Under the pieces are notes generated by a model, which was given only the letters and a program-made list of their open reading frames with translations, was not told where the DNA came from and made no database searches. The position numbers were made by a program, and so were the translations under genes. A stretch of DNA of 64,000 bases from Gammaproteobacteria bacterium (GTDB lineage Bacteria > Pseudomonadota > Gammaproteobacteria > Legionellales > Legionellaceae): contig JASBUO010000044.1 of assembly GCA_030147855.1 (NCBI GenBank), positions 1,678 through 65,677 on the forward strand, read 5' to 3'. Positions 579 to 45,612 of the stretch are shown here, piece by piece; the stretch's first letter is position 1, and every line of letters starts with the position of its first letter.

Positions 579-1871
579 ATGATTAAAGCTTTCATTTCAC
601 GTACAAAACCAATGACACTCATGATAATTGGTTTAAGTGTGATTTTTGGTGGCCTTATTCTTTTTAATGTGGGCAAAGGCATTTTAATCCGCCAGTTTTT
701 CAAAAACTTTCAACCACCGGCCGTGACCGTCGCATCAGTCGATGTCAAAGAAGAAAATTGGCAACCTAATCTACATACAGTGGGTGCTTTTGTGGCAGTA
801 AATGGGGTCGACATTAACTCTGAGGCATCTGGAAGCGTCATTGACATTCACTTTAAATCAGGCGAAATGGTTAAAAAGGGTACATTGCTTGTTGATATTG
901 ATGACAGCGTTGATAAAGCCACCTTAAAAGCAAATGAAGCTGAGTTGGTACTACAACAAGTCAACTACAAGCGCCAAGCACAACTCCTCAAAAGAAATGC
1001 AACCTCACAGTCAGAAGTTGATACCGCAAGAGCCGGCATGCTAGAAGCTGAGTCTAAAGTAGAGCATACCCGCGCTGTTATTGCACAAAAACATATCAAA
1101 GCCCCATTCACAGGACGCCTTGGGATTCGTATGATTAACCTGGGTGAATATATCACAACAGGCAGAACCAATATTGTAACGCTTCAATCCCTCGATCCAC
1201 TCTTTCTTGAGTTTTATGTGCCAGAACAACAGCTCTCGCGCATTCATGTAGGGCAAAACATTTTATTTTCGGTTGAGCCTAACGCCGACAAACTCTTTTC
1301 AGGAAAAATCACCGCAATTAATGCCAAAGCAGACGCACAAACGCATAACGTAAAGATACAAGCAGCAGCCGCTAATTGCCCCCCTGAAGTATTTGATGAA
1401 AGCAGACGCTCACATTTGATAGAAGCACAAAAAATTCCAAATACGGGCTATACAAAAATCACATGTAATACAGAAAAAAATCAAGCGGCAAACCTTGAAA
1501 AGTATGCCTTTATTCCAGGGATGTTCACATCTATTTCAATAGAGCAGCCTGCTGTTTCGGGAGCTTTGGTATTACCAAAAACAGCCATTTCCTATAGCTT
1601 ATATGGCGACTCTGTATTTCTAATTGAACCTCAAGTAATTGATAACGTCGTGCAAAAAAACGATAAAGGAGAAGATATATTGGTCGTTAGACGCGTCTTT
1701 GTCACCACAGGAGATGAAGAAGGGAATCAAGTTGTGATAAAAAAAGGGGTGAAAGCAGGCCAGAAGGTGGTTAGCGCTGGTGAAGTCAAGCTACAGAATG
1801 GCACACATGTGGTGATTAATAACGATGTACCACTCAATAATGATAATAATAAGTCTAACTTAAGCGAATAA
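579..1871 (+). CDS. efflux RND transporter periplasmic adaptor (membrane fusion protein, HlyD/AcrA/MdtA family)
   Basis: N-terminal TM anchor, a coiled-coil hairpin region (ATLKANEAELVLQQVNYKRQAQLLK...), and beta-barrel/lipoyl-like segments typical of MFPs. Its stop lies 4 nt before the RND permease start. Confidence 0.8.
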   Translation: MIKAFISRTKPMTLMIIGLSVIFGGLILFNVGKGILIRQFFKNFQPPAVTVASVDVKEENWQPNLHTVGAFVAVNGVDINSEASGSVIDIHFKSGEMVKKGTLLVDIDDSVDKATLKANEAELVLQQVNYKRQAQLLKRNATSQSEVDTARAGMLEAESKVEHTRAVIAQKHIKAPFTGRLGIRMINLGEYITTGRTNIVTLQSLDPLFLEFYVPEQQLSRIHVGQNILFSVEPNADKLFSGKITAINAKADAQTHNVKIQAAAANCPPEVFDESRRSHLIEAQKIPNTGYTKITCNTEKNQAANLEKYAFIPGMFTSISIEQPAVSGALVLPKTAISYSLYGDSVFLIEPQVIDNVVQKNDKGEDILVVRRVFVTTGDEEGNQVVIKKGVKAGQKVVSAGEVKLQNGTHVVINNDVPLNNDNNKSNLSE

Positions 1872-1875
1872 GGTC

Positions 1876-4800
1876 ATGCATTTTACCGATTTATATATTA
1901 AACGCCCTGTGCTTTCGACCGTTGTAAGCTTGCTGATTTTATTGTTTGGCTTAAATTCGCTGCTGAATATCTCTATTCGACAATATCCCAAAATGGATAA
2001 CACGGTTATTACCGTCACAACACAATACCCAGGGGCTGATGCAAACCTCATTGCAGGCTTTATTACAACTCCTATTGAAAGTGCCATTTCTAGCGCCGAG
2101 GGGGTTGATTACATGACATCATCCAGTACGCTTGGTACCAGCACCATCACCTTAAACATTAAACTTGGCTTTGACTCACAAGTGGCATTTACTGATGTCA
2201 TGAGTAAGGTGCAACAAACCTTAAACCAGCTCCCCTCAGAATCACAAGACCCGGTCATTGTTAAAAGCTCTGATACCTCAACCGACTTGTTATACCTAAG
2301 CTTAGATAGCCCCGACATGACCCCGCAACAAATCACAGACTATGCAACCCGTGTGGTTAAACCTCAGATTGAAACCATTAGTGGTGTGTCAAAGGCTGAA
2401 ATTTTGGGTGGGCAAGTCTATTCTATGCGTATTTTTCTCGATCCTGTCAAAATGGCAGCGCTCAGCGTAACACCGGCTGATGTCTCTCGAGTACTTAGAA
2501 ACAATAACTTTTTAACCGCTGCAGGCCGCATTAAAAGTGAATATGTTGCTATCAGCATTCGTGCTAATACCGACTTAAGTACAGCCGAGCAATTTGGCCA
2601 AATTATTGTTCGAAGCCAAAAAGGATCTATCACCCGACTGCAAGATGTGGCCCGCATTGAACTCGGCTCTCAAAATTATGACTCTTCAGTTATTTTTAAC
2701 GGGAAAAAAGCTGTTTTTGTTGGTATAACCCCAACTCCAAGTGCCAACCCACTCGATGTGATTACCCAGGTGCGACAATCGTTTGAGCTACTCACGAAAC
2801 AATTTCCCCCTTCTCTCAAAGGTACTGTAGTTTACGACGCAACCGACTTTATCCGTGCATCGATTGATGAAGTGATTTCTACGCTGCTTGAAGCAGCATT
2901 TATTGTGATTACTGTTATTTTCCTTTTTTTGGGATCCGTGCGCTCGGTGCTGATTCCTGTTGTAACCATTCCTCTATCTTTAATTGGCGTATGTACCTGC
3001 ATGTTCTTTTTAGGGTACTCCATTAATTTGCTCACTTTACTTGCCTTTGTACTTGCCATAGGGCTTGTGGTAGATGACGCCATTGTAGTAGTTGAGAATG
3101 TGCACCGCCACATAGAAGCAGGTAAAACACCCTTTGAAGCAGCCATTATTGGGGCCCGTGAAATTGCAACGCCTGTTATTGCAATGACCATCACACTCGC
3201 AGCGGTTTATGCACCGATTGGATTCATGTCGGGCCTAACAGGCGCATTATTTAAAGAGTTTGCATTCACACTTGCATCGGCTGTGATTATTTCAGGCGTG
3301 ATTGCGCTCACACTTTCGCCTATGATGTGTTCAAAAATTCTCACGCCTCAAATGAGTGAAGGCAAGCTTTCTCAAAGGGTAGAGCGTATTTTTGAAACCC
3401 TACGCGTTCGATATAAAGCGTGGCTACACAAACTGCTGAACACACGTGAAATCATGATTGTTTTTGCTGTGGTTGTACTTCTTATTTTGCCTTATCTTTA
3501 TATGAAAACCCCAGACGAAACAGCGCCTGAAGAAGACCAAGGGTTCTTTTTTGTGGTAGGCACTCCTCCACAATCAGCTACATTAGAATATGTTGAAGCA
3601 TTTACAAAACCTTTTGAGAAAATCTTTACAAGTTTTCCGGAGGCAGAGCACTATTTTATTGTCAACGCGGCCGCACCTGTATCAGGTATCGTCCTAAAAC
3701 CATGGGGCGAACGTAAACGCACACAATTTGAAATGAAGCACCCCCTGCAAGACGCATTAAACACGGTTGCCGGCATGAAAAGCTTTGCTGTTATTCCTCC
3801 CCCTCTACCGGGTGGTGGTGGTGGAACACCAATTCAATTTGTTATTAAAACCAGTAACGATTTTGCAAGCTTATTAGATGTATCTGACAAGCTCATGAAA
3901 AAAGCAGAAGAGAGTGGTTTGTTTATTTACCTTGATAATACTCTTAAGTTCAATCAGCCCGAAGTAGAGCTTCAGATAAACCGCGCCAAAGCTGCAGATT
4001 TAGGGCTTGATATGAGAAGCATCGGAAACAGCTTAAGCGCTGCACTGTCGGGCGGTTACGTCAATTACTTTAATTTAGAGGGCCGAAGCTACCAAGTGAT
4101 TCCTCAGCTAGAGCGACGTTTTCGCATGACCAGCGAACAACTGGGGCAAATTTATGTAAAAACCATCGATGGCACCATGGTGCCTCTGTCAACCATTGTG
4201 ACCCCTATTGAAAGAACAAAACCCAATGCCATCACACACTTTCAACAGTTAAACGCTGCAACCATCCAAGGAGTTACCATGCCTGGTACAACCCTTGGCG
4301 AGGGACTTAGCTTTTTACAAGAAGCTGCAAAAGATGTGCTTCCAAAAGGATTTTCCGTTGATTACGGTGGCCAATCAAGACAATTCATGCAAGAGGGAAG
4401 CGCGCTGATAGTTGCCTTTTTTCTATCCATTATCATCATTTTCTTGGTGCTATCTGCACAATACGAAAGCTTTCGCGACCCACTGATTATTCTCATTAGT
4501 GTCCCCATGTCGTTATGTGGCGCACTAACTCCCTTAAATTTGGGGGCTGCAACGATTAACATTTATACGCAAGTAGGGCTCATTACATTAATTGGCCTAA
4601 TCAGTAAACATGGAATTTTAATCGTTGATTTTGCAAATCATTTACAGCGTGAGAAAAAGCTCGACAAAAGAGCTGCCGTTGAAGAGGCTGCAAGCATTCG
4701 TCTGCGCCCCATTTTAATGACGACAGCCGCTATGGTATTTGGCGTGCTACCCCTTTTAATTGCGTCAGGTGCAGGTGCCGTTAGCCGCTTTGATATTGGT

Positions 4801-4920: not shown

Positions 4921-5062
4921 CCGTACATGAGCTCTGGATAAGATTACCATATATGCAATCCTCACTATACCTACTTGCTTTTCTATGAACATCCATTAAA
5001 ACACCAATACTGCTTAATAAATAAGCTATAATTTGTTTATATATAATTAAATGGGTTAAAAT

Positions 5063-6058
5063 ATGCCCTCTGATATTATTCAAATCAATGCCTCCCTACT
5101 GGCACATATTGGTGCTGATGCAGAAAGCCTTGGCAGCGGTTATGAGGGTAATACTTTTCAGAGCACCACGGGTTATCTCTGCCAATATTTAAACACACTA
5201 CCGCTTGAAAGCACCGTGCAGTTAGCACACTTAAAAGCACTATTTAAGGCACTTGCCGCGCGCGAAAAAGCACTTATGGTACTTCGTCATCAACCCTTTA
5301 ATAAGAGCGCTTATCAGCATTACATCGATACACTTTCAAACGAGATTAAAACGCTTTCAGTCGGAGCGACTCACCTTTTTCCGGGTGGCTGGCAAACCGA
5401 GAGTGGCGGGCATGCTATGCTCTATCGCTTCAAAAAAACAGACAACGATACGCTCATTTTTGAAGTGATTCAATCTGGTGAGGGTATTGGGTATCATGAG
5501 CAGCACTCAAGTATTGAAAAAGAGCTTTACGCCCCGCTTAAGAGTTTCTCAATTAACCTGAAAACGCTCACGGAAAAAACCTTTGAGACCGAACTCCCCT
5601 TATTTATTGAGCGTCTCATAAGACCCAATTTACTGAACCATCCAGACCATCCTCACAGCGCTTTTTCTGAAGGCACACTGTATGAAGAAATACTCCCTTC
5701 CATCTCATTTTTAGAAGGCACAGAATTTATCAGTAATGAAATATTAGAGTGTGAAGGATACACCGGCTCACAACTTTCAGGCACATGCGCTGAACGCGTG
5801 ATTCATCAATTGTTAAAGTTTCAGTTTGCGTCACTCGACGCCTACCAACAGTTTATTTTAAATTATAAAATCTATGCACTGAACGATTATCTTGAAAAAC
5901 ACCCCAATAACCCAGATCTAGAACTTGTGGAAGACACCTACCGCAATAACTTGCGGCTTTATGGCCGACTACTCGTTAAAAACACCCTCACTGAAAGCGC
6001 GCAAGTTTCCATTGAAGCCAATATTGACGTGGCACGCCAACGCATTCACATGCTCAAA
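5063..6058 (+). other. N-terminal ~330-aa module of the giant protein with a candidate Cys-His-Asp/Asn (papain/NlpC-P60-like) arrangement
   Basis: Q33-x6-C40 (FQSTTGYLCQYL, Cys codon 5180-5182). H117 lies in GGHAMLYRF (5411-5413), resembling the GHxxxY motif of NlpC/P60 enzymes. D127/N128/D129 follow 10-12 residues later. An alternative Cys is C242 in GSQLSGTCAERV. Pattern match only. Confidence 0.3.
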
Positions 6059-9000
6059 CGAAGAACACCAGCCCCCCCCAGCGTATCTACCAGTAGAGCG
6101 ACTTCAGTACCCAATACTCACCATACTGTAAATATTAGTCCAACCACCGATGTGCCACGTCTTAAGGTTTTCACTGCTCCAGAACCATCACCAGTCGCTC
6201 AAGCAACATCCATTCCGCCAATTAAACCCGAAAATTTACTGCCAGAACTCACATGGTGGGAGTCTGAAATTCAACGGCTCAGCCGCCAAAATGAGCATGA
6301 TATGGTACTTGAACAAACCAAATCTCTCATGCTTGCCATCAATAACATAACTCTCCCAAAACTATCAAAAAACGACCGTGACAACCTCCAAAGCACATTA
6401 GAGCGCTTAAAAAGCACCTATTTCACATCAAAAAGAGCGTGTTTTGACAGTTCAAAAAGTTTGCCAGAGCACTTGTTTGTTCATTTATCACTGAACTTAC
6501 TCAATATAGCACTGTTTGAACAAACCGTTCCAGACAGTCAATTTTCACTTGTTGCTCGAAAAACAATAGGCGATGCTTTAAAAATGCTACAGATGCAGCC
6601 TTACCTTGCAAGCACCAATCCGCAACTAGATATGGCCTTCAATAAAGTCATCCAATCCACGTCAACAGTAAAACTTGATACACCTCTAGATTGCTACCTA
6701 GCTATTATAAATAAGCAGCCAGACCTCAAAAAACAGCTACAAGCAAAATATGATGCCTTGCCAGAAGCTCAAAAACCAACGCCTGCAGCACTTCGCCAAG
6801 CATTAGAAAGAGAGCAACAACAAGTTTTATGGTATGTCCTAGAGCACAAGGATAAACTTAAAACCGACCCATCATTTAAAAGCATTGTGCAGCCTATACT
6901 TGCCATGCAATTGATAGAGGAAAATGCCTATCAATTTCACCAGGCAGCCCAACAGCGCTCATGGCTCATCCGCCCGTCAACATTTCAACTCGATCGAAAC
7001 ACAAACACACTAGTGTTTGAAAGTGCATTAAATCAACTTAAATTGTGGTTTACTACACACGATGAAAACCACCCAGTTTATCCGTTAAAAAAACACACAC
7101 TTCAAGGCGCTGTATTTTCGATACATGAACAAGCCAGGGCTGAAAATGACATTCAACTTAAAGCTTACCAGTGCGACTTTGCAGACTGGAAAAAAGATAT
7201 AAACAAAAAAGAAAGCTTACAGCTCCGAGAACTCTATCATTTAAGAACAGCTCCTGAGGCACAAGTTGACCTAACACTTGATTACTTTTTAAGACATCTT
7301 ACCTCGCTACGTGACGCGAACATGCAACAATATTTAGAAGCCAATCTCTTTCAACCACCACTCCTTTTAGATTGCCTTAAAAAAAGTTCCGCAATCCTCA
7401 CGCCCTTTTATCAGCTTATCAACAGAGGCATTCGAAGCACTTCCAAAAATGGTCAACCAAGCCAAGACTCCCTTGTATTCATTCGCCTGTATTTTCTATT
7501 AAACCGCTACCTTAATACGTATGATGAATTACTACAATTTGGCGATACACTGGAGCGCTTTAAACAAGACATCGATGTAATGTTAAGTAGCCGTATTGAG
7601 GATAAACACATCCAATACAGTTTACATCAATATCGTTTTTTAACAGCCATTGAAGCATATAAAAGCCATAAGCCACTGGATGCTAATTTTTACCAAGACT
7701 TACTCACTTCTTATTTTTTTCTGCAAGCACACAATAACCCTAAACAAACCCAAAGCCTTCAAAGCACCTATGAGCTAAAACATGCATTTAAAACGTTTCA
7801 GTCCATCATACAAGCCCAAGGTGTAGAAAAATTTGAGGCGTACCTACCCCAAGTACTCGCTGCAATGGATATGGATACGTCATCCCTTCAGTTAGAAAAA
7901 ACAGGTAAAACCTTTGTTTTTAGGAATACCAATACGGGCATGATTCAATATCAAATCGATATTCACCATGGGCTTATTTATCATGGAGCATACAACCAAG
8001 CGCTCATTCCAACACCACTCTCCATTAAAGCGAACCCGCAATGTATTGCACTTGGTTTGCACCAAGTTGCTGCGTGCTTTACCTCAGCAGACAAAGATTA
8101 CTTCTATTTTGAAAGGGCAGATGGTGATGTGCGTGTCATTAGAAAACGGTTTTCTCAAGCACTTCACGTACAAAAAAAATGGACGATTAATGGTAAGGAA
8201 GCTTGGTATGAACAAAAAGATGCCATGTCTCAAGAATACCAATCACTCCCTTGCGAAATAGGTTTAGATTTACCCAAGATACTGCGCGATAACACCGTAT
8301 CAAACTGGGTAAAGTGTGATGCGCCACACAATGTTTTAATCACACGACATGACACACCCATTTTATGCTCAACTAACCCTAATGTGCTTAATCATCAACA
8401 CCTCATTTTTAAAGATGTTAACCCAGAAACGCACCATACAACCAACAGCGTACTGATCTCAAAACCAGCGTCTCAAAAGCATATTATACCCCTGCTTCAA
8501 TTTGAAGATGCTGAATTTTTAACGGCTTTTTTAGACGAAAGAACGGGAATGATTGAAGTATGTTTTGAGCGTTATGGCTTTAGTGTTCAATACCATACAA
8601 ACGACAGTTCAAACACTATCTACCTAACGGGCACACCTTACACATTGTGTGATAACCCAAATCTATTTTCAAAACATATTGCATGCCTCACCTTTGAGCA
8701 CAGGACAAGCAAAGAGGAAGTTTCTAAAAAATGTATTCTCCCTATCCAGCCTTTTTTATTAACGCCTAGCCCACTAATGAGTAAAACAAAGAGTGTACCC
8801 ATACACGATATTTCAGGCGAACAGCAAGCAAAGTACGCTGCGAAAACAAGGACTGCAACAGGTGATGCTCTTCCCTTTAATTATCACTTAAGCGAACAAC
8901 TCATTGAGCTTCCATTAGATAAAGCAGGTACACCCTATGCGGGAAATTGTGAAGATGCACTTTATTTAACCTATGTTTATCTTGCGGCTAAGCAACCTGA

Positions 9001-12000
9001 AAAAGCACTCGAAACGTTAAACCATTGTCAAAATAATTTAGGTGGACTTCGTGGAACAGCACAAGAACTTGCCTATTTACACTGGATTAATCATCAGCTA
9101 GGAGGAATATCAAATCCACGCATTGTGGCATGCCAACTCCGTGCAACCGCTTTACTGACCGACTTTTTAAGCCAAGGAAAGTCTATTCCAGACCCCGAGT
9201 ACGTACTGCTTGAGGTTCAAACAGGTAATGCAGTTTATCAAAAAGCGCAACAAGAAGAGCGGCAAGCCTTTTTAGCAGCGCTACCAGGGCATATTGCAAC
9301 CCAGTTTTCCACATACCAACGAATGCTGCGACACATGCCAAGCACATTTAAACTGGGAGACAATGAAGTAAAAAGCTTACTCTCCTACTTTAAAAAGCAC
9401 AGCGCTGCTAAACCACATGGTGCACTGGCATACGCTGCACAAATACTTGACTTAAAAACGCTTAAAAAAGAATTAGTCCACTTAAATGGTTTAAAAAAGG
9501 CCGGCCAACAGCTAACGCCAAACCAAACTGAACGACTCGGTACCCTAGAAAATCATATTGCGCACACAGAGGCAGTTGCCAAACAAACATCGCATTTGAT
9601 TGAAGATACAGTCGACTTAACATTGCCTGAAAGTTGTGAAAAGTTCCGTATTGATTATCCAACTTATTTCAGCGAACCATGTAGAAAATACGTTTTTAAA
9701 GCACTTACATCAGACCTTGATGAAAGTACATTCAAAGCTGACTTTGGTCTTTTCCTTGCAACCGCTCAAAGCGACCAACTCACAAGGGAACAAAAAGAAG
9801 CCTATACACTCTTTTGTATACGCATGCTACGCCAATATCGATTTAGCAAAGCACCCAAAGACGTCGGCACACAACTTTTAATAAATTTACTCTATCGTGT
9901 ACTCACCTCTAATCAGACACTTTATACCCCTCATGACCCATGCGTAACTGAGCTTAGAACTCGCGCAGGCCACGTGCTAAAGCCTGTGAGTCTCACATAT
10001 CTATTCGACCAAATCAAAGGCTGGGAACCTCCACCCATCATACCCGTTTTGAGTATTAAAAATGTGCATGAAGAAGTGTTACAAACATCGGAGGAAATGC
10101 TTGCAACACTCGATAAAGAGGTGCGGCCTAAACACCCTTTAATTATCGAAAGTACAGGCACACCTCACCTTTCACTGCACAGCCTACTGGTTGGTTTAGA
10201 TGAGCATTTCGCACGTTTCAAAACAGCTTACCTCGACAACCAAGCTTCACACAAAGATGCGTTAGAAGCACTACGTGCACGCATAACCCCCGAAACACCC
10301 CATAAGGCACTGTTTGAAATTGAAAAAGAAGCAGGCGCACTTGAATTAGCGCATCTAAATACACAAAATAATCTTGCCGAAGCTTACTTTAAAGACAAAA
10401 AAGGTGCCTTAGAAACGTTACAAGCAAATGCCAGCCAAGATCTTGCAGACTGTGAAGCAAAAATGGAAACCCTGTGGGACATTATTCTTCAGCTTGCAAA
10501 CAGACCGCCAGAAAATACTGCTGAAAGCCCCAACAAGCACAAACTGTTTGGTGTTGAAATTGAAGCAGAAGAACGCCAGTTACTTGGCGAGCGTGAGTTA
10601 TACAGCCTTTACATACAAGGAGATTTGGTTCGCTACACGGAAAAAACTAACCTCGGTGAAGCAGATATCAGAGTGCTGCACCAATACATCCACCAGTACC
10701 TGCATCACAAGCTCCATCGGCAGCACTTAGAACGCTTTAATAAAAAACTAAACGATGCCATTAAGGAACCTGAAAACTCGCATAAAATCCGTGCTGTTGT
10801 GCAGCAGCTTATGCAGGAAAATACACCTGATGCAGTCAACAACACAGCTTATACCTTCTTACAATGTGAAGAAAACATCCTGCTCCGTAAAAACCAAGTT
10901 GCGGCACTAAAGAGTCTATACCCAGCCCCTGAAACCTTACCCAAAGAAAGCGTTGAAAAACTCATTATGGGGGGCGGAAAATCAACTGTCATTCTCCCCT
11001 TGTGGGCAAAACAAAAAGCCGATAGCTCAAATCTTGTGATTTTAGAAGTACCCCGCGCATTGCTACACAGTAACCATGCTGACATGAACCAAACCTCATT
11101 TAAATGGTTTGGACAATGCGCCCATAAATTTGAGTTTGCGCGTGAAAGCAATGCATCTCCTGAAGCACTCGAGCATTTATATCACTTTTTCCGTGAGGTA
11201 ATGACCAACCAAGACTACCTCGTTACCACGGGTGAATCGATGCAATCGCTGCAACTCAAGTATTTAGAAATGCTTGATAGAAAGCCTGAAGTCACTGACA
11301 CAGATGCCATGCTTGACTGGGAGCGCCAAGTTCAAAGTTTAGATAACATCTTAAACCTCTTAAAGTCTCACGGCTACGCCATGATAGATGAGGTACACCA
11401 AGGGCTTATCACTAAACAAAAACTTAATTATACCTCAGGTGAAGACTTACATATTTCACCGTTTCTCATTGATGCCAACGTCAAGTTCTATCAATTTTTA
11501 AGCCCCATTCAGTGGACTAATCCTGAAAGTGAAACCTTTACTTTAGCAAAGCTTATTAAAAATCCAAGGCTTGTTAAAGGAGACGATGAGTGGCAAAGCA
11601 TTGTCGAAACAATTTGTAATACGCTGATTGAAACACGAGATGGCCCACTGAAACGTATTTTTGAGAACTATCCAAATCTAACTCCCCTACAAATTAAAGC
11701 ATACATACAAAACACATTAACGGGTCAAGAAGAAACTGAAGTCATGGCCATTATTAATACGATGTTGACTGATGATAATACCTTACTTGCCTTTTATAAA
11801 ACCGAATTAAAAACACAAAAAGGCATCTTTAAACAAACCGCGTCTCGCCAATACCGCGTTAACTATGGCCCATCAATACTTGAAGGAAAAACACCTCAAG
11901 AACGTGCTGTTGCCATTCCTTATGGTGGAAACGACAACCCCCGAGAATCGAGTCGTTTTGCAAACATTAATGAGGCAATGAATTACACCACGCAAGCTAT

Positions 12001-15000
12001 GCTCATTACAGGCATTGAAAAACCGCTTGTGATTGATTTAATTCGCACCTGGCAAAACGAAGCGGAGGCTGAATACCGCCAGCTATCTGCCAGAAAAGAA
12101 GTTTCTTACGAAGGGACTAATGCTGCAACTATTTTTAAAGATCTCATGCAAGAAAGTCCTTTTAGACTAGGACTTGGTGAAGTTGACCTTGAATCAGACG
12201 AACACATTGATATGATTTGCAAAACCCTGCAAGAAAACAGCTGGGTAACTTATCAAATTTTACAAAACTATATTCTTCCGCAAATTACGTTCAATGAAGA
12301 AACCTTAAGCAGCAATGCTTACCATCATGTTGATATGTACCACTCAGTCCATGGTGTATCAGGCACCCCCGCCAATCACAAAAGCTTTCATCAGCGTATG
12401 CGCTACAACCCTACCGTTGCACTAGGAAGTGATGGACTCGTCATTGGCACAACCCTTGCAAAAAATAGCCAAATTTATGCCATTGACTATGAAACGCCGC
12501 ATCAATTTTTAGATGATTTATTTGATAAAACCAATACTCATCAGGATATTTCAGCCATCATTGATGTTTGTGCCATGTTTCAAGGGCAAAAAAATCTTGA
12601 TGTTGCCAGCGCAATTGCTACAAAGCTACGTGAGTCAGGCTCAAAGGTTCAATACGTTTTATACTTTGATAACGAAGTGCTGTGTGCAAAACCCTGCGAG
12701 GCAAACAAAGCACCCATTAGGCTCGGTACCACAAAAGTTGGGAATATTAACCAAATTCTAAACTGTACGCCTGAAGAACGCTTTACTTATTACGACCAAG
12801 TGCACACCACAGGGACTGACATTAAACAAGGGAGTGCAGGCCGCGGACTGGTGCTCGTAGACCACAAAACACCTTTAACCTCAACCCTACAGGGCACAAT
12901 GCGCATGCGCGACTTCATTCTGGGGGAACAGTCCGTTGATTATGTGGTACCCCCAGCCCTTACCCAATATGCACATACCAAAGAGCACCCCGGACACTTA
13001 GAGGCGTTTATTAATAAAATGGCTGATAATGAGGCAAACAGCTTAAGTGCCGAAAACTTCGTCAGCACACTCGAAAAAATGACCGCAATGGTCCGAAAAG
13101 ATATTTTAGACCGTCTACTCGCCATTCCTAATATGCACCCGCATAAAAAGCATGCAATGCATGAAAAAGTACGATCTGTTTTTTTCGAAAACCACAGAGC
13201 CAATTATTTCGAGCAGTATGGCAAGCTCATTCATGAAGAAGATGCGCGCAGTATCCTTGAGCGCCACAAAGCCAATATCTTAGCCAACTGGCATGCCTTG
13301 CTCGAAAAAATTGCCACTAGCGCTACAGATGTAACACATCAAACGCTAGACGATATGCTACAGGACATCATTGAAGGTATTTTGCCACACTGTGACCCCA
13401 TGCAGCTTAGTAACACCGACTCACCAGACGAGTCTGCTGAAAATGAGTTGGAGCTTCATGAGCATGTAGAAGCAGAGCATGAGGCCTTACAAGAAGAAGC
13501 ATTTTTCAATCCAAAACTGACAGCGCAACGTTACCAATACCCTACCTTCACACGCTTCAATTCAAACCCTATCACTCATTATGAGCCTAACTTTTTTTCA
13601 GCAAACTTGAAGCTCAGTAAAAATTTTTCAGAGACCTACATTGGACAGGGCAACACACTCTTTAATGCTTTCATGAAACCTGCGCACGTTATCCTTTTCT
13701 CATATAAAGACGGTCAACTCACTGCAACGCTCATTACAAACCGAGAGTTTCGCGACTTACAGCAGCAAGCTCTCCCAGACGCTACGTGGTTCTCAGATTT
13801 ACAAGGAAACTGTCTTTGGGGCAAAAAACCAGCATATATTGAATCCCTAGACATGTATCACAACTTAATGGAACAAGTTTTATTTTTTAATGGGGACTTG
13901 GAACCCCTCATGCAGCGTCCACGATTTTCATGGCTAAATCAAGAGTCTGATAAAAAAATAGCCTTTTTTGAAGCCAAAATTTTACCCTATCGTGAGGCTA
14001 CACGTGAAGAAGTGAACCGACTCAAGCAAATTTTTGAGCGCGCAACTTATCTTGAAGTATATAATTACATTTCTGAACATCTCGATGACCCTCACTTAAT
14101 CCGCTTTAATTTTAAATCGATTCATCCGGAAATCGATGAAAGAGACACCGAGCTGTTTCTCTATCTCATCGAAACACTACAACACATCAAGATTGACTGG
14201 GAAGTAACAAATATACCTGATGCGCAAGCAATCATGCTTAAGCACCATCTCCCCAAACAAGCGTTTACTTGTGTTAAAAAATATTGTGGAACGCTTGATA
14301 CACTCGAAAAAATTGCAAGAAATTTTGACGCGCTCATGGATAAACAGCACCAAACAGAAAGCATTCAAACTTTATGTCGTATCTTTAAAACAACGCCCGA
14401 GGCAATTGCTGCAAACTACGCTGAGCATCCAGAAACACAATTATCACCCAAACTCTACTGCCTCATCAAACTGTTAGATAGCTCATATATCAAGGAGAGT
14501 GAATCTTTTATAAGCAAGTTCTTTGATACCACACACCTCTCATCAGAAGAACTCATTGAGATCATTCAAAAAACATCGATTGCAACCATAGCTAATAGCG
14601 CACTTAATACATTGATTAACCACATAAACAGCGTAGACGACACAGATACAAGCGGCCTTGCTGAAAATGAAAGGCTGATTGATGCGCTCATTCCACATGT
14701 TTCCCCTACAATTTCTACACGCTGCTTACTCAATATTCACAAAGGCATGACTAGCGCACTATTTGAACGTATCATCCATACTTGTGACATCAATAGTCAT
14801 ACCTCTACAATTTTAAAGCACCCTCTCTGCATAGATAAAACTGTATGTAATCTACTCAATAACCCAAAACTAGATAAGGAAAATTTTGATATTATCATCA
14901 AGGAATGGATACCGAGCCTTGACACGCTTCACATCATTTTACGGCACCCCTATTTCGAGCTTCGAAACGCCCAAAAATTCTTACAAGATTCGTTGTTACC

Positions 15001-42686: not shown

Positions 42687-44837
42687 TCAAGAAATACACA
42701 ACCTTTCTGCGAGCTTTGTCAAACGACCAGCTTCTTTGTCGTTATGTACTGCCATTCCTATAGCCTTTTTTTGACCAATCAACACCACATGTCGCTTCCC
42801 ACGTGTAATGCCTGTATACAACAAATTTCGAGCAAGTAACGTAAAGTGCTGAGTTGCAAGTGGGATTACAACCACCGGAAACTCAGAACCCTGCGATTTA
42901 TGAATGCTAATTGCATATGCCAAGCTTACTTCATCAAGCTCATTAAAACTATAAGTTTTTAAACTTCCATCAAATACTATGTGTAACTCGCTCTCTTCTA
43001 TATTAACGCTTTTAATACAGCCAATATCACCATTAAACACATCTTTGTCATAATTATTACGCATCTGAATGACTTTATCGCCTGGTGCATAGACCGACCC
43101 AAACCGCTCCACTTTAGGGGTTGCGTGACCATTTAACTTTTCTTGCAAGGTCGCATTTAAGCTCCGTGCACCAAGCCCCCCACGATTCATCGGCGTTAAC
43201 ACTTGAATATCTTGAATTGGATCGTAGCCATACCGCCTCGATAAACGATGTGTTACTACTTCAACTAATTTAGTATGAATGGCTTCAGGTGTGTCTGTAT
43301 ACAACGTAAAAAAGTCACTTTGAGGCGAGTCATAAGATTTTGGCATGCGTCCCTCGTTGACTCGATGCGCATTTACAATAATATGTGAATGTGCTGCTTG
43401 CCTAAAAATTTCAGTCAGTCTCACTGTTGCAATTACACCTGATGTGATTAAATCTGATAATACAGCCCCGGAACCAACCGATGGTAACTGGTCAATATCT
43501 CCCACAAAAATCACGGCTGTATCTAAGTGTATTGCCTTCACCAAATGGTGTAACAGCACAACATCAATCATGGATGCTTCATCAATAATCAACACATCAA
43601 GTGGCAATAAATTATTTTGATGATGCTTAAACCCATAGGTTTTCATATCAAAGTCCAGTAAACGATGAATAGTTTTAGCTTCCATTCGTGTCGTTTCTGT
43701 CAAACGTTTCGCCGCACGCCCGGTTGGCGCACAAAGGCCAATTCGAAGTGATTTCGCTTCAAGAATACCCAATAAACTTTTAACAATCGTGGTTTTACCC
43801 ACACCAGGGCCACCCGTCATAATTGAAAGCTTTGATTTTAACACTATACCAATGGCATCACGCTGAGAGTCTGACAATGCAAGTGCGGTTTGCTTCTCAA
43901 CCCATGGAATCACTTTTTCAACATCAACCTCACTCCATGGCGGTATGCCTGTGTTCAATCGTCTTAATTGCGCTGCTGCATTAATTTCTGCAGTATATAA
44001 AGAAGCTGGATAGACACACGGAACATCGCGAATCGTATCCGTCATTAAGGTTTCTTCTTTCAATTCTGCTTCAAGTGCGTGTTCAATCACATCTTTGGGG
44101 ATATCTAGTAGTTTTACACTCGCATCAACCAACTGTATCCGCTCAACTGCACAATGCCCGCTATCACAAAGCTCTTGCAACACATGTAGCACCCCCGCTT
44201 GCGCACGCACGAGTGCATCTTTTGCAATCCCTAACTTCTCTGCTAAGTTATCTGCCGTTTTGAAACCAATGCCATGGATATCACGCGCTAAACGATAAGG
44301 ATTTTCTTCAACCAGTTGAACCGCTTTGTCGCCATAGGTTTTATAAATTCGAACGGCGCGTGCACTACCGACCCCGTGACCATGCAAAAACACCATAATA
44401 CTGCGAATTGCTTTTTGCTCAGCCCAAGCCGATAAAACTTGTGCTTTTCTTTTTTCACCAATGCCTTCAAGCTCTAACAGACGATACGGGGCTTTTTCTA
44501 TTACATCAAACACCGCCACCCCAAAGGCAGCCACCAACTTTTTCGCAAAATGCGGACCAATGCCTTTCACCATGCCCGAGCCTAAATATTTCTCAATGCC
44601 TTCAAGGGTGGTTGGTTGCACTGCCTTTAATGTGTCGGCTTTAAATTGTAGGCCATGCTTTTTATCATTAACCCATGCACCTCGACACTCAATGTATTCA
44701 CCCGCTGTAATAGAGGGCACACTTCCGATGACCGTCACAATATCTCGGTTGCCTTTTGCCTTCACACGCAATACACAAAAACCGGTACTCTCACTATGAA
44801 ATGTGACACGTTCAATAGCGCCTTGTAATTGCTCCAT
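42687..44837 (-). CDS. RecD2-type SF1 DNA helicase (RecD/TraA family)
   Basis: N-terminal OB-like MEQLQGAIERVTFHSESTGFCVLRV, HhH repeats, Walker A GGPGVGKTT, Walker B IIDEASMID, and C-terminal SIHKSQGSEF. Start trimmed to ATG 44837. Confidence 0.85.
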   Translation of the reverse strand: MEQLQGAIERVTFHSESTGFCVLRVKAKGNRDIVTVIGSVPSITAGEYIECRGAWVNDKKHGLQFKADTLKAVQPTTLEGIEKYLGSGMVKGIGPHFAKKLVAAFGVAVFDVIEKAPYRLLELEGIGEKRKAQVLSAWAEQKAIRSIMVFLHGHGVGSARAVRIYKTYGDKAVQLVEENPYRLARDIHGIGFKTADNLAEKLGIAKDALVRAQAGVLHVLQELCDSGHCAVERIQLVDASVKLLDIPKDVIEHALEAELKEETLMTDTIRDVPCVYPASLYTAEINAAAQLRRLNTGIPPWSEVDVEKVIPWVEKQTALALSDSQRDAIGIVLKSKLSIMTGGPGVGKTTIVKSLLGILEAKSLRIGLCAPTGRAAKRLTETTRMEAKTIHRLLDFDMKTYGFKHHQNNLLPLDVLIIDEASMIDVVLLHHLVKAIHLDTAVIFVGDIDQLPSVGSGAVLSDLITSGVIATVRLTEIFRQAAHSHIIVNAHRVNEGRMPKSYDSPQSDFFTLYTDTPEAIHTKLVEVVTHRLSRRYGYDPIQDIQVLTPMNRGGLGARSLNATLQEKLNGHATPKVERFGSVYAPGDKVIQMRNNYDKDVFNGDIGCIKSVNIEESELHIVFDGSLKTYSFNELDEVSLAYAISIHKSQGSEFPVVVIPLATQHFTLLARNLLYTGITRGKRHVVLIGQKKAIGMAVHNDKEAGRLTKLAERLCIS

Positions 44838-44847
44838 AGATGATGTC

Positions 44848-45612
44848 TTACACTGGATTATCACTGTCAATAAACGTATGTTCTAAAGCAAATCGCTCAG
44901 CCAAATGCTCACCTAACGCCCGAATACCATCCCTTTCAGTTGCATGATGCCCACATGCAAAATAATGTAATCCAAGCTCTTTAGACTGATAATAGGTACG
45001 CTCAGAAATTTCACCACTTAAATAGGCATCCACACCTAAGCGACTTGCTTCCTCAATTAAGTCTTGTGCGCCCCCCGTACAAAAAGCAACCGTTCGAATC
45101 AGTTTTTTGCTACCTGAAACACATTGAGGGGTTCGGTTATAAATGTGATGCAGCATGGTTGTGAATGCATCCGTTGTCATTGCTTTAGGTAACACACCTG
45201 TCCATAACAAGTTTGGCGTACCCATCGCTGTATGGCTTTTTAAGTCAGATACATTAAGCCGCTTTGCCATACAAGCGTTATTCCCTAATTCAAGGTGGCA
45301 ATCAACCGGTAGATGGTATGCTAGCAAATTCATATCATGTTTTAATAAGTGCATAATGCGCGCGCGCTTCATCCCTGAAATTTGGGGTGCCTCTCCCCGC
45401 CAAAAATAACCATGATGCACGAGCAATGCATCCGCTTTATCTTTAGATGCTTTTTGAATGACATCTATCGATGCGGTCACAGCAGTTCTAATACGATGAA
45501 TCTTTAAGCATCCCTCAACTTGCAATCCATTCGGTGCATAATCTTTAAAAGTATCTACTGAAAGATATGCACTTAAATACTCCAAAAGCTCTGTACGAGA
45601 GGCCATATACAT
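44848..45612 (-). CDS. Nif3-like dinuclear metal centre protein (YbgI family)
   Basis: DYAPNGLQVEG, LLVHHGYFW and CGHHATE motifs. Start at M31 (45612) by comparison with the YbgI N-terminus. The tracked extension to 45702 runs through intergenic palindromes. Confidence 0.85.
   Translation of the reverse strand: MYMASRTELLEYLSAYLSVDTFKDYAPNGLQVEGCLKIHRIRTAVTASIDVIQKASKDKADALLVHHGYFWRGEAPQISGMKRARIMHLLKHDMNLLAYHLPVDCHLELGNNACMAKRLNVSDLKSHTAMGTPNLLWTGVLPKAMTTDAFTTMLHHIYNRTPQCVSGSKKLIRTVAFCTGGAQDLIEEASRLGVDAYLSGEISERTYYQSKELGLHYFACGHHATERDGIRALGEHLAERFALEHTFIDSDNPV

Follow-up and report, generated by a model that had tools for sequence, protein, structure and literature searches.

A DUF3638/DUF3645 module with a predicted SecA-like motor architecture in a 4133-residue protein of Legionellaceae

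We examined a 64,000-nucleotide stretch of DNA (the window) from a gammaproteobacterium of the Legionellaceae (GenBank assembly GCA_030147855.1, contig JASBUO010000044.1, positions 1,678 to 65,677 of the forward strand). The window contains a giant gene, a single open reading frame (ORF) of 4133 codons on the forward strand (5063..17464 in the ORF list), whose translation is a protein of 4133 residues. Residues about 1940–2690 of this protein probably form a catalytically competent superfamily 2 (SF2)-type ATPase that belongs to the DUF3638/DUF3645 family, has a SecA-like layout and grips or moves a linear polymer. A preliminary description of the window, made without database searches, had proposed a motor with two RecA lobes of the SF2/SecA type, and this proposal is supported by the conservation of the motifs, by an AlphaFold2 model and by a structural search that returned SF2 proteins only. 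What that description lacked is that the module belongs to a catalogued Pfam family, DUF3638/DUF3645. The gene is a further member of this functionally uncharacterised family; the new point is that the DUF3638/DUF3645 core is, as modelled here, a complete SF2 motor with SecA as its nearest structural analogue.

A conserved SF2 motif series in a giant ORF

Translation of the giant ORF places six motifs at exactly the residues given in the preliminary description, all on the forward strand. A Q-motif-like ILLRKNQV (residues 1939–1946, nt 10877–10900), which corresponds to LLRPRQ in the family consensus, is followed by the Walker A motif LIMGGGKST with K1973 (residues 1967–1975, nt 10961–10987), the Walker B/DExH motif MIDEVH with D2109/E2110 (residues 2107–2112, nt 11381–11398), motif III, SGT (residues 2433–2435, nt 12359–12367; in its longer form VSGTP, residues 2432–2436, nt 12356–12370), motif V, TTGTDIKQG (residues 2582–2590, nt 12806–12832), and motif VI, QGTMRMRDF (residues 2610–2618, nt 12890–12916), in which R2614 and R2616 are candidate arginine fingers. 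A motif Ib-like VTTGES sits in the first part of lobe 1 (residues 1960–2120). The preliminary description put about 140 residues between Walker A and Walker B and about 320 between Walker B and SGT; the measured distances are 136 residues (K1973 to D2109) and 323 residues (E2110 to S2433).

We determined the conservation of each position in our own alignment of 132 complete homologous modules. All of the proposed catalytic residues are kept in 95–100% of these modules. Conservation is 0.99 for Q1945; 1.00 for each of G1970, G1972 and K1973 in Walker A; 0.99 for D2109 and 1.00 for E2110 in Walker B; 0.98 for G2434 and T2435, 0.91 for P2436 and 0.90 for N2438 in and after motif III; 0.98 for G2584, 0.95 for D2586 and 0.98 for Q2589 in motif V; and 1.00 for each of Q2610, R2614 and R2616 in motif VI.

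Membership in the DUF3638/DUF3645 family

The Pfam model DUF3638 (PF12340) matches residues 1924–2131 of the giant protein (E = 1e-22 to 1.6e-23; 81–83.6 bits, cut-off 31). The match to DUF3645 (PF12359) is weak (E = 0.04–0.19; 11.6–13.8 bits, under the cut-off of 25) and covers residues 2281–2302, including the AIPY motif (residues 2284–2287), which lies downstream of the DUF3638 match. DUF3645 was also matched in 10 of 12 relatives, with a best E of 1.4e-5. The DUF3645 patch, AIPY...P.E.SRF.N...N.T.Q (residues 2281–2311, nt 11903..11995, forward strand), lies within the inserted domain described below, and outside the ATPase motifs no surface is more strongly conserved (P2286 1.00, Y2287 0.98, E2295 0.96, N2307 0.97, Q2311 0.97 in the same 132 modules).

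An exhaustive HMMER search of 1.84 billion cluster representatives, with residues 1880–2720 as the query, gave 2413 relatives, of which 595 reach E <= 1e-30. The majority are proteins of 3000–5000 residues with the module near residue 1900. The closest relatives, from Legionellaceae and from gammaproteobacterial metagenome-assembled genomes (MAGs), are labelled 'DUF3638 domain-containing protein' by NCBI. Because of the Pfam DUF3638 match, the 2413 relatives and the near-invariance of the motifs in 132 modules, the motif series is real and not a chance pattern.

Searches of the other libraries (NCBIfam, PADLOC and PHROGs) gave no match. Seven further tiles of the ORF gave nothing beyond noise against Pfam, and residues 1–1940 had no Pfam match, DUF6606 (PF20255) included. 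In the literature searched DUF3638 occurs as a domain label only, and we found no functional data for DUF3638 or DUF3645.

Predicted structure of the module

Residues 1880–2720 were modelled with AlphaFold2, template-free, from an alignment of 30 relatives from the profile search; placements were read from the DSSP secondary-structure string of the model, in which residue i corresponds to residue 1879 + i of the protein. The model has a mean predicted local distance difference test score (pLDDT) of 88.1, a predicted TM-score (pTM) of 0.82 and no segment below a pLDDT of 50. The preliminary description had named the absence of RecA-like folds around the motifs as the outcome that would speak against a motor. 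In the model two RecA-like lobes are predicted, and every motif falls at its canonical secondary-structure position. Q1945 is at the start of a helix (model residues 64–73). Walker A spans a strand (84–87), the P-loop and a helix (94–106), and D230/E231 of the model (D2109/E2110) end the strand 225–230. Motif III (S554-G555-T556) closes the next core strand (549–554), and motif V comes after a lobe 2 strand (694–698). Q731 (Q2610) lies in a helix (726–733), with R735/R737 (R2614/R2616) in the loop that follows; the preliminary description had named this fully conserved pair as paired arginine fingers. With two tandem RecA-like lobes, motifs I, II and III in lobe 1 and motifs V and VI in lobe 2, the predicted fold is that of an SF2 ATPase.

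The first part of RecA-like lobe 1 (residues 1960–2120, window 10940..11422, forward strand, as are all parts of the module) is supported by the Pfam DUF3638 match, the model and the invariant residues. It leads into an inserted domain of about 300 residues (residues 2121–2417, 11423..12313), after which the chain returns to lobe 1 with motif III (12314..12421, around model strand 549–554). RecA-like lobe 2, with motifs V and VI (residues 2454–2639, 12422..12979), consists of alternating strands and helices (model residues 575–760), and a 43-residue helix (model helix 766–808) directly follows it (residues 2645–2687, 12995..13123). The large insertion anticipated from the motif spacing is real, with a predicted domain of about 300 residues between motifs II and III. 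The chain enters it by a 10-residue strand (residues 2121–2130, model 242–251) and leaves it by a 9-residue strand (residues 2409–2417, model 530–538). The interior of about 280 residues is predicted to be mostly helical, with a small sheet on which the invariant YG and AIPY residues sit. How the two long flanking strands pair and how far apart the motifs lie in space are our inference from the model. The nucleotide-site residues come from lobe 1 (K1973, D2109/E2110), from the junction of the lobes (S2433–T2435) and from lobe 2 (motif V and Q2610/R2614/R2616).

Structural neighbours and the relation to SecA

Foldseek comparison of the model with the PDB gave 22 matches at E <= 0.001, every one an SF2-type ATPase. 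The top matches were all SecA (E = 1.4e-8 to 6e-7), comprising 1tf2 (E = 1.4e-8), 5eul_A (E = 1.2e-7; template modelling (TM)-scores 0.41/0.46), 3jv2, 2ibm, SecA2 (4uaq) and Escherichia coli SecA, with TM-scores of 0.34–0.46. Other SF2 proteins matched were LGP2, MDA5 and RIG-I (E = 3e-6 to 1e-4; whole-chain TM-scores 0.22–0.25), DinG and CasDinG (E = 1.8e-5 for DinG; 0.24–0.30), SNF2 remodellers (E about 4e-3; about 0.2–0.25) and XPD (E = 1.8e-2; 0.23). By whole-chain TM-score, SecA stands above every other SF2 protein matched.

SecA, the ATPase motor of the bacterial Sec translocase (PDB entries such as 1tf2, 5eul, 3jv2 and 2fsf), carries a preprotein cross-linking domain (PPXD) between motifs II and III, and its long helical scaffold helix comes directly after lobe 2. 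As predicted, the module here likewise has two RecA lobes. Its insert lies at the topological position of the PPXD, between motif II (DEVx) and motif III (xGT), with a long strand predicted on either side, and right after lobe 2 there is a long helix, here of 43 residues and in the position of the scaffold helix. Local resemblances to the E. coli SecA sequence, which are without statistical support, include YAMIDEV..L here for YALVDEV..L in SecA, the GTDI of motif V, and G2595-L...R2614-x-R2616 spaced as G553-L...R572-x-R574 in SecA.

The module also differs from SecA. The two have no significant sequence similarity, and the giant protein has no Pfam SecA domains. The insert here is about 300 residues and mainly helical, whereas the PPXD is about 150 residues. 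A Q-motif-like LRxxQ is present in this module, and the SecA wing domain, two-helix finger and zinc-binding tail were not identified within the model, which ends at residue 2720. The module is also embedded in a 4133-residue protein and has relatives in eukaryotes; the eukaryotic and viral homologues argue against SecYEG as a partner. The specific link to SecA is one of predicted structure. In our reading, the DUF3638/DUF3645 module represents a distinct SF2 family of SecA-like topology and not a member of the SecA family.

A proposed polymer motor

ATP would be bound in the cleft between the lobes, and its binding and hydrolysis would close and open them. This motion would displace the inserted domain relative to lobe 2 and to the long helix, in the manner of the SecA clamp, and the moving insert would create a site at which a linear polymer is clamped or translocated; if so, the module would grip or move such a polymer. 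We regard a polypeptide as slightly more likely than RNA or DNA as the substrate, since over the whole chain the best analogue is SecA and no module that binds nucleic acid can be detected; here the preliminary description, which recognised no such accessory domain, agrees with the Pfam, NCBIfam and tile scans across all 4133 residues.

The motor may be the engine of a giant protein common to eukaryotes and giant viruses. The bacterium probably delivers the protein into its amoebal host, where the motor would act together with the LegA15-like N-terminal domain, the repeats and the hydrophobic C-terminal tail described below. Delivery by the Dot/Icm system is plausible, since the protein is eukaryote-like and is found among bacteria essentially only in Legionellales. 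In a bolder extension, which we hold to be doubtful, DUF3638/DUF3645 would be a SecA-related motor that clamps polypeptides in the eukaryotic cytosol; the AIPY-bearing insert would serve as its substrate clamp in the unfolding, extraction or threading of host proteins, and the motor would have been exchanged as the engine of giant conflict proteins among fungi, protists, giant viruses and Legionellales. If this were true, the module would be the first motor of the SecA type to act other than in protein export.

Several observations weigh against a SecA-like motor that acts in the host. The TM-scores to SecA are modest, at most 0.46. Motif V had been described as close to the SecA motif GRGTDIKLG; GTDI is indeed common to both, but the arginine of SecA (GRGTD) is a threonine here. 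The Pfam models SecA_DEAD, SecA_PP_bind and SecA_SW are absent from the giant protein at E <= 1 and from the 12 relatives at E <= 10, and searches of the PDB with the single sequence and with a 12-member profile gave no meaningful match. Alignment of the family profile (132 modules) with E. coli SecA by hhalign gave a probability below 1% and a score of 24.5, while shuffled SecA reaches 29.3; with a broader profile of 193 modules the result was unchanged and within the shuffled range. Control alignments with RhlE, DinG and RapA were equally weak, centred on Walker A and likewise below 1%. With regard to the host, the window holds no evidence of Dot/Icm, secretion is inferred only, and the giant protein is far larger than any Legionella effector known to us.

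Alternative explanations

It is possible, if on the unlikely side, that the module is instead a nucleic-acid-dependent SF2 helicase, translocase or sensor (RIG-I-like, DinG/XPD or SNF2/ResIII in type) that works on host or bacterial RNA or DNA, with the insert as a clamp or regulatory domain. Foldseek gives a probability of 1.0 for LGP2/MDA5/RIG-I, DinG, SNF2 remodellers and XPD and also matches viral DEAD/SNF2 helicases, and the Walker B motif is of the DExH type (DEVH). The family consensus LLRPRQ and SGTPxN resembles nucleic-acid-dependent SF2 enzymes, which again counts against a SecA-like motor: the ResIII/SNF2 signatures LRPYQ and TGTPxQN look closer to it than the SecA motifs do. One relative moreover has a weak Pfam ResIII match (E = 0.012), which points the same way. 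Helicases nevertheless rank below SecA both in E-value and in whole-chain TM-score, and the position of the insert and the helix after lobe 2 fit SecA and not RIG-I, in which the insertion is in lobe 2. The lack of a detectable nucleic-acid-binding accessory domain and the absence of PADLOC and PHROGs matches likewise tell against a nucleic-acid substrate.

A self-export role, in which the SecA-like module would export the giant protein or insert it into the membrane inside the bacterium, appears improbable. This role has been proposed for giant proteins of Omnitrophota and Actinobacteria with SecA_DEAD and preprotein-binding domains (10.1101/2023.11.21.568195), and it would accord with SecA as the best structural match and with the single conserved hydrophobic segment near the C-terminus (residues 4081–4099). 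The same module is, however, found at the same position in proteins of fungi, a dinoflagellate and giant viruses, where export across a bacterial membrane makes no sense; the protein has no Pfam SecA match, unlike the Omnitrophota proteins, and it has one hydrophobic segment only and no signal peptide. Finally, a chance pattern, or a decayed, non-catalytic remnant kept as a scaffold, is very improbable and already disfavoured. The literature has no biochemical data on any family member, and the DUF3645 score is under the Pfam cut-off; against this stand the DUF3638 match at E = 1e-22, the 95–100% conservation of the catalytic residues, a ratio of nonsynonymous to synonymous substitution rates (dN/dS) of 0.10 in the module and the confident two-lobe model. 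A SecA-like SF2 motor that handles a linear polymer remains our preferred explanation.

Distribution and selection

A scan of one genome per species gave 95 loci, of which 80 were kept, almost all from Legionellales or from unclassified Gammaproteobacteria and Proteobacteria; since the scan used patterns built from the Legionellales clade, more distant bacterial homologues may be missed. Named species with homologues are Legionella drancourtii (two copies, loci L015 and L020), L. brunensis, L. bononiensis, L. worsleiensis, L. maceachernii, L. moravica, L. quateirensis and L. jamestowniensis; homologues also occur in Tatlockia, Berkiella and many MAGs, in some of which there are again several copies. 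Three tandem copies (L004, L006 and L050) lie on one Legionellaceae contig (JBCKWE010000010.1). One homologue (L016) comes from a contig assigned to Verrucomicrobia, perhaps through a binning error. The closest match (L001) is 88% identical in the module and 72% identical over the full-length orthologue. Compared with this orthologue, the gene as a whole has a dN/dS of 0.27 and the module one of 0.10; the gene is under purifying selection and the motor is its most constrained part.

Outside the bacteria, the profile search reaches giant proteins of fungi (Suillus, Rutstroemia), which combine DUF6606, DUF3638 and DUF3645, and one dinoflagellate protein. The fungal module, at residues about 1950–2700 of about 3000, and the module here are equally far from the N-terminus. 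Foldseek comparison with predicted viral structures matched Klosneuvirus-type DUF3638 proteins (E = 1e-27 to 1e-12; TM-scores 0.36–0.66, with 0.47–0.66 for the best eight), and the giant viruses matched include Harvfovirus, Fadolivirus, Hyperionvirus, Hokovirus (four paralogues) and Yasminevirus. Some of the Klosneuvirus-type proteins are named 'ubiquitinyl hydrolase 1'; no peptidase domain was seen here. The family is spread patchily, with expanded sets of paralogues, over amoeba-associated bacteria, giant viruses and fungi, a pattern suggestive of horizontal exchange and of a part in host-parasite conflict.

The remainder of the giant protein and its genomic context

The giant protein has a conserved core (residues 1–3050), then a variable repeat region and then a conserved C-terminal tail. 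Tile by tile, the regions conserved among 205 relatives are residues 1–300, 500–1050, 1250–1550, 1750–3050 and the last 130; residues 3000–4000 are lineage-specific in the same set. Residues ~3300–3950 (window 14960–16912) contain about 15 copies of a helical repeat of roughly 44 residues (internal BLAST E down to 1e-13), which is absent from most relatives and matches no Pfam repeat family; some relatives have ankyrin repeats.

In the N-terminal domain (residues ~30–295, window 5150–5947), H117, H145 and Y207 are invariant and C242 and Q237 nearly so; further invariant or near-invariant positions are PGGW107–110, N/Q137, G139, G141, S239, G240, H248 and K252. The AlphaFold2 model of this domain has a pLDDT of 79, and its only fold match is LegA15 (7kj6, E = 2e-4, TM-score 0.43), a Legionella effector described as an atypical GTPase (PMC9757750). 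A papain-like or deubiquitinating thiol peptidase built on H117/H145/C242, with the pattern Q-x-SG-x-C, was considered and is unsupported, LegA15 being the only fold match. A DUF6606 homologue was also considered, and hhalign comparison with the fungal DUF6606 region gave no match.

When bacterial and fungal N-terminal regions were compared by hhalign, the only region matched was residues 964–1227 (window 7952–8743), which align with residues 1033–1274 of fungal DUF3638 proteins at a probability of 90%. This match and the equal distance of the module from the N-terminus show that homology with the eukaryotic proteins extends beyond the ATPase. The bacterial branch is an architectural variant, in which the eukaryotic DUF6606 is not detectable.

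At least 33 relatives share the conserved C-terminal tail (residues 4000–4133, window 17060–17461; HRGxKQ...D..N...RFF). This tail includes the one strongly hydrophobic segment that the protein has, a 19-mer at residues 4081–4099 (17303–17359) that is possibly a membrane anchor. No signal peptide was found in the giant protein. The C-terminus itself is polar, carries E/D at positions -14 and -12 and bears a weak resemblance to Dot/Icm signals.

The neighbours of the giant gene are ordinary chromosomal genes that give no functional clue (among them HlyD/AcrB efflux, NlpC/P60, HslUV and MutY-like), and the rest of the window holds housekeeping genes (photolyase, EPSP synthase and serine dehydratase beside HslUV and the MutY-like gene). 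A RecD2-type SF1 helicase gene, with OB_YrrC, HHH_RecD2, AAA_30, SH3_13 and UvrD_C_2, is at 42687–44870 on the reverse strand. The 142-nt region upstream of the giant gene (4921–5062) is AT-rich and has a perfect TATAAT at 5027–5032 and a TTAATA element; a consensus scan of the two ends of the gene detected neither a full sigma-70 promoter nor a terminator.

Significance and comparison with known systems

DUF3638/DUF3645 is a large family, with at least 2413 cluster representatives; its giant proteins come from intracellular bacteria, from fungi and protists and from giant viruses. An intact SF2 motor with the predicted SecA-like topology makes it a testable enzyme with two competing substrate classes. 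For Legionella biology, widespread and often multi-copy proteins of 3000–5000 residues with eukaryotic and viral relatives are candidate host-directed factors.

The systems closest to the giant protein are the DUF3638/DUF3645 giants of fungi, protists and Klosneuvirus-type viruses, whose database names include 'ubiquitinyl hydrolase 1' and 'P-loop containing NTP hydrolase'. Their ATPase module is homologous to the one here (profile E about 1e-25; family hidden Markov model 1e-43 to 1e-47), the predicted structures of the giant-virus proteins match it at TM-scores of 0.5–0.66, and the module likewise lies about 1900–2000 residues from the N-terminus of proteins of at least 3000 residues. The fungal modules, however, are only about 20% identical to it. 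The eukaryotic giants have DUF6606 at the N-terminus, where the protein here has the LegA15-like domain, and the protein here further differs from them in about 650 residues of lineage-specific helical repeats and in the conserved hydrophobic C-terminal tail.

RIG-I-like, DinG/XPD and SNF2/ResIII ATPases share the two-RecA-lobe core, the motif order, the DExH Walker B and the LRxxQ-type and xGTPxN-type motifs, with Foldseek probabilities of 0.9–1.0. They differ in TM-scores of only 0.22–0.30, in accessory domains that are different and placed elsewhere, and in sequence profile matches that are marginal.

SecA-like motors have also been described in other very large proteins of bacteria that attack or live within cells. 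'SecA-like helicase-related domains' were reported in effectors of the amoeba symbiont Amoebophilus (PMC3482391), and giant proteins of Omnitrophota and Actinobacteria contain divergent SecA_DEAD domains that were proposed to aid their own export (10.1101/2023.11.21.568195). These modules, like the one examined here, are described as distinct from housekeeping SecA. Pfam SecA models detect the domains of Omnitrophota and Actinobacteria, whose proteins have many transmembrane helices, whereas the module here is recognised as DUF3638 and its protein has one hydrophobic segment.

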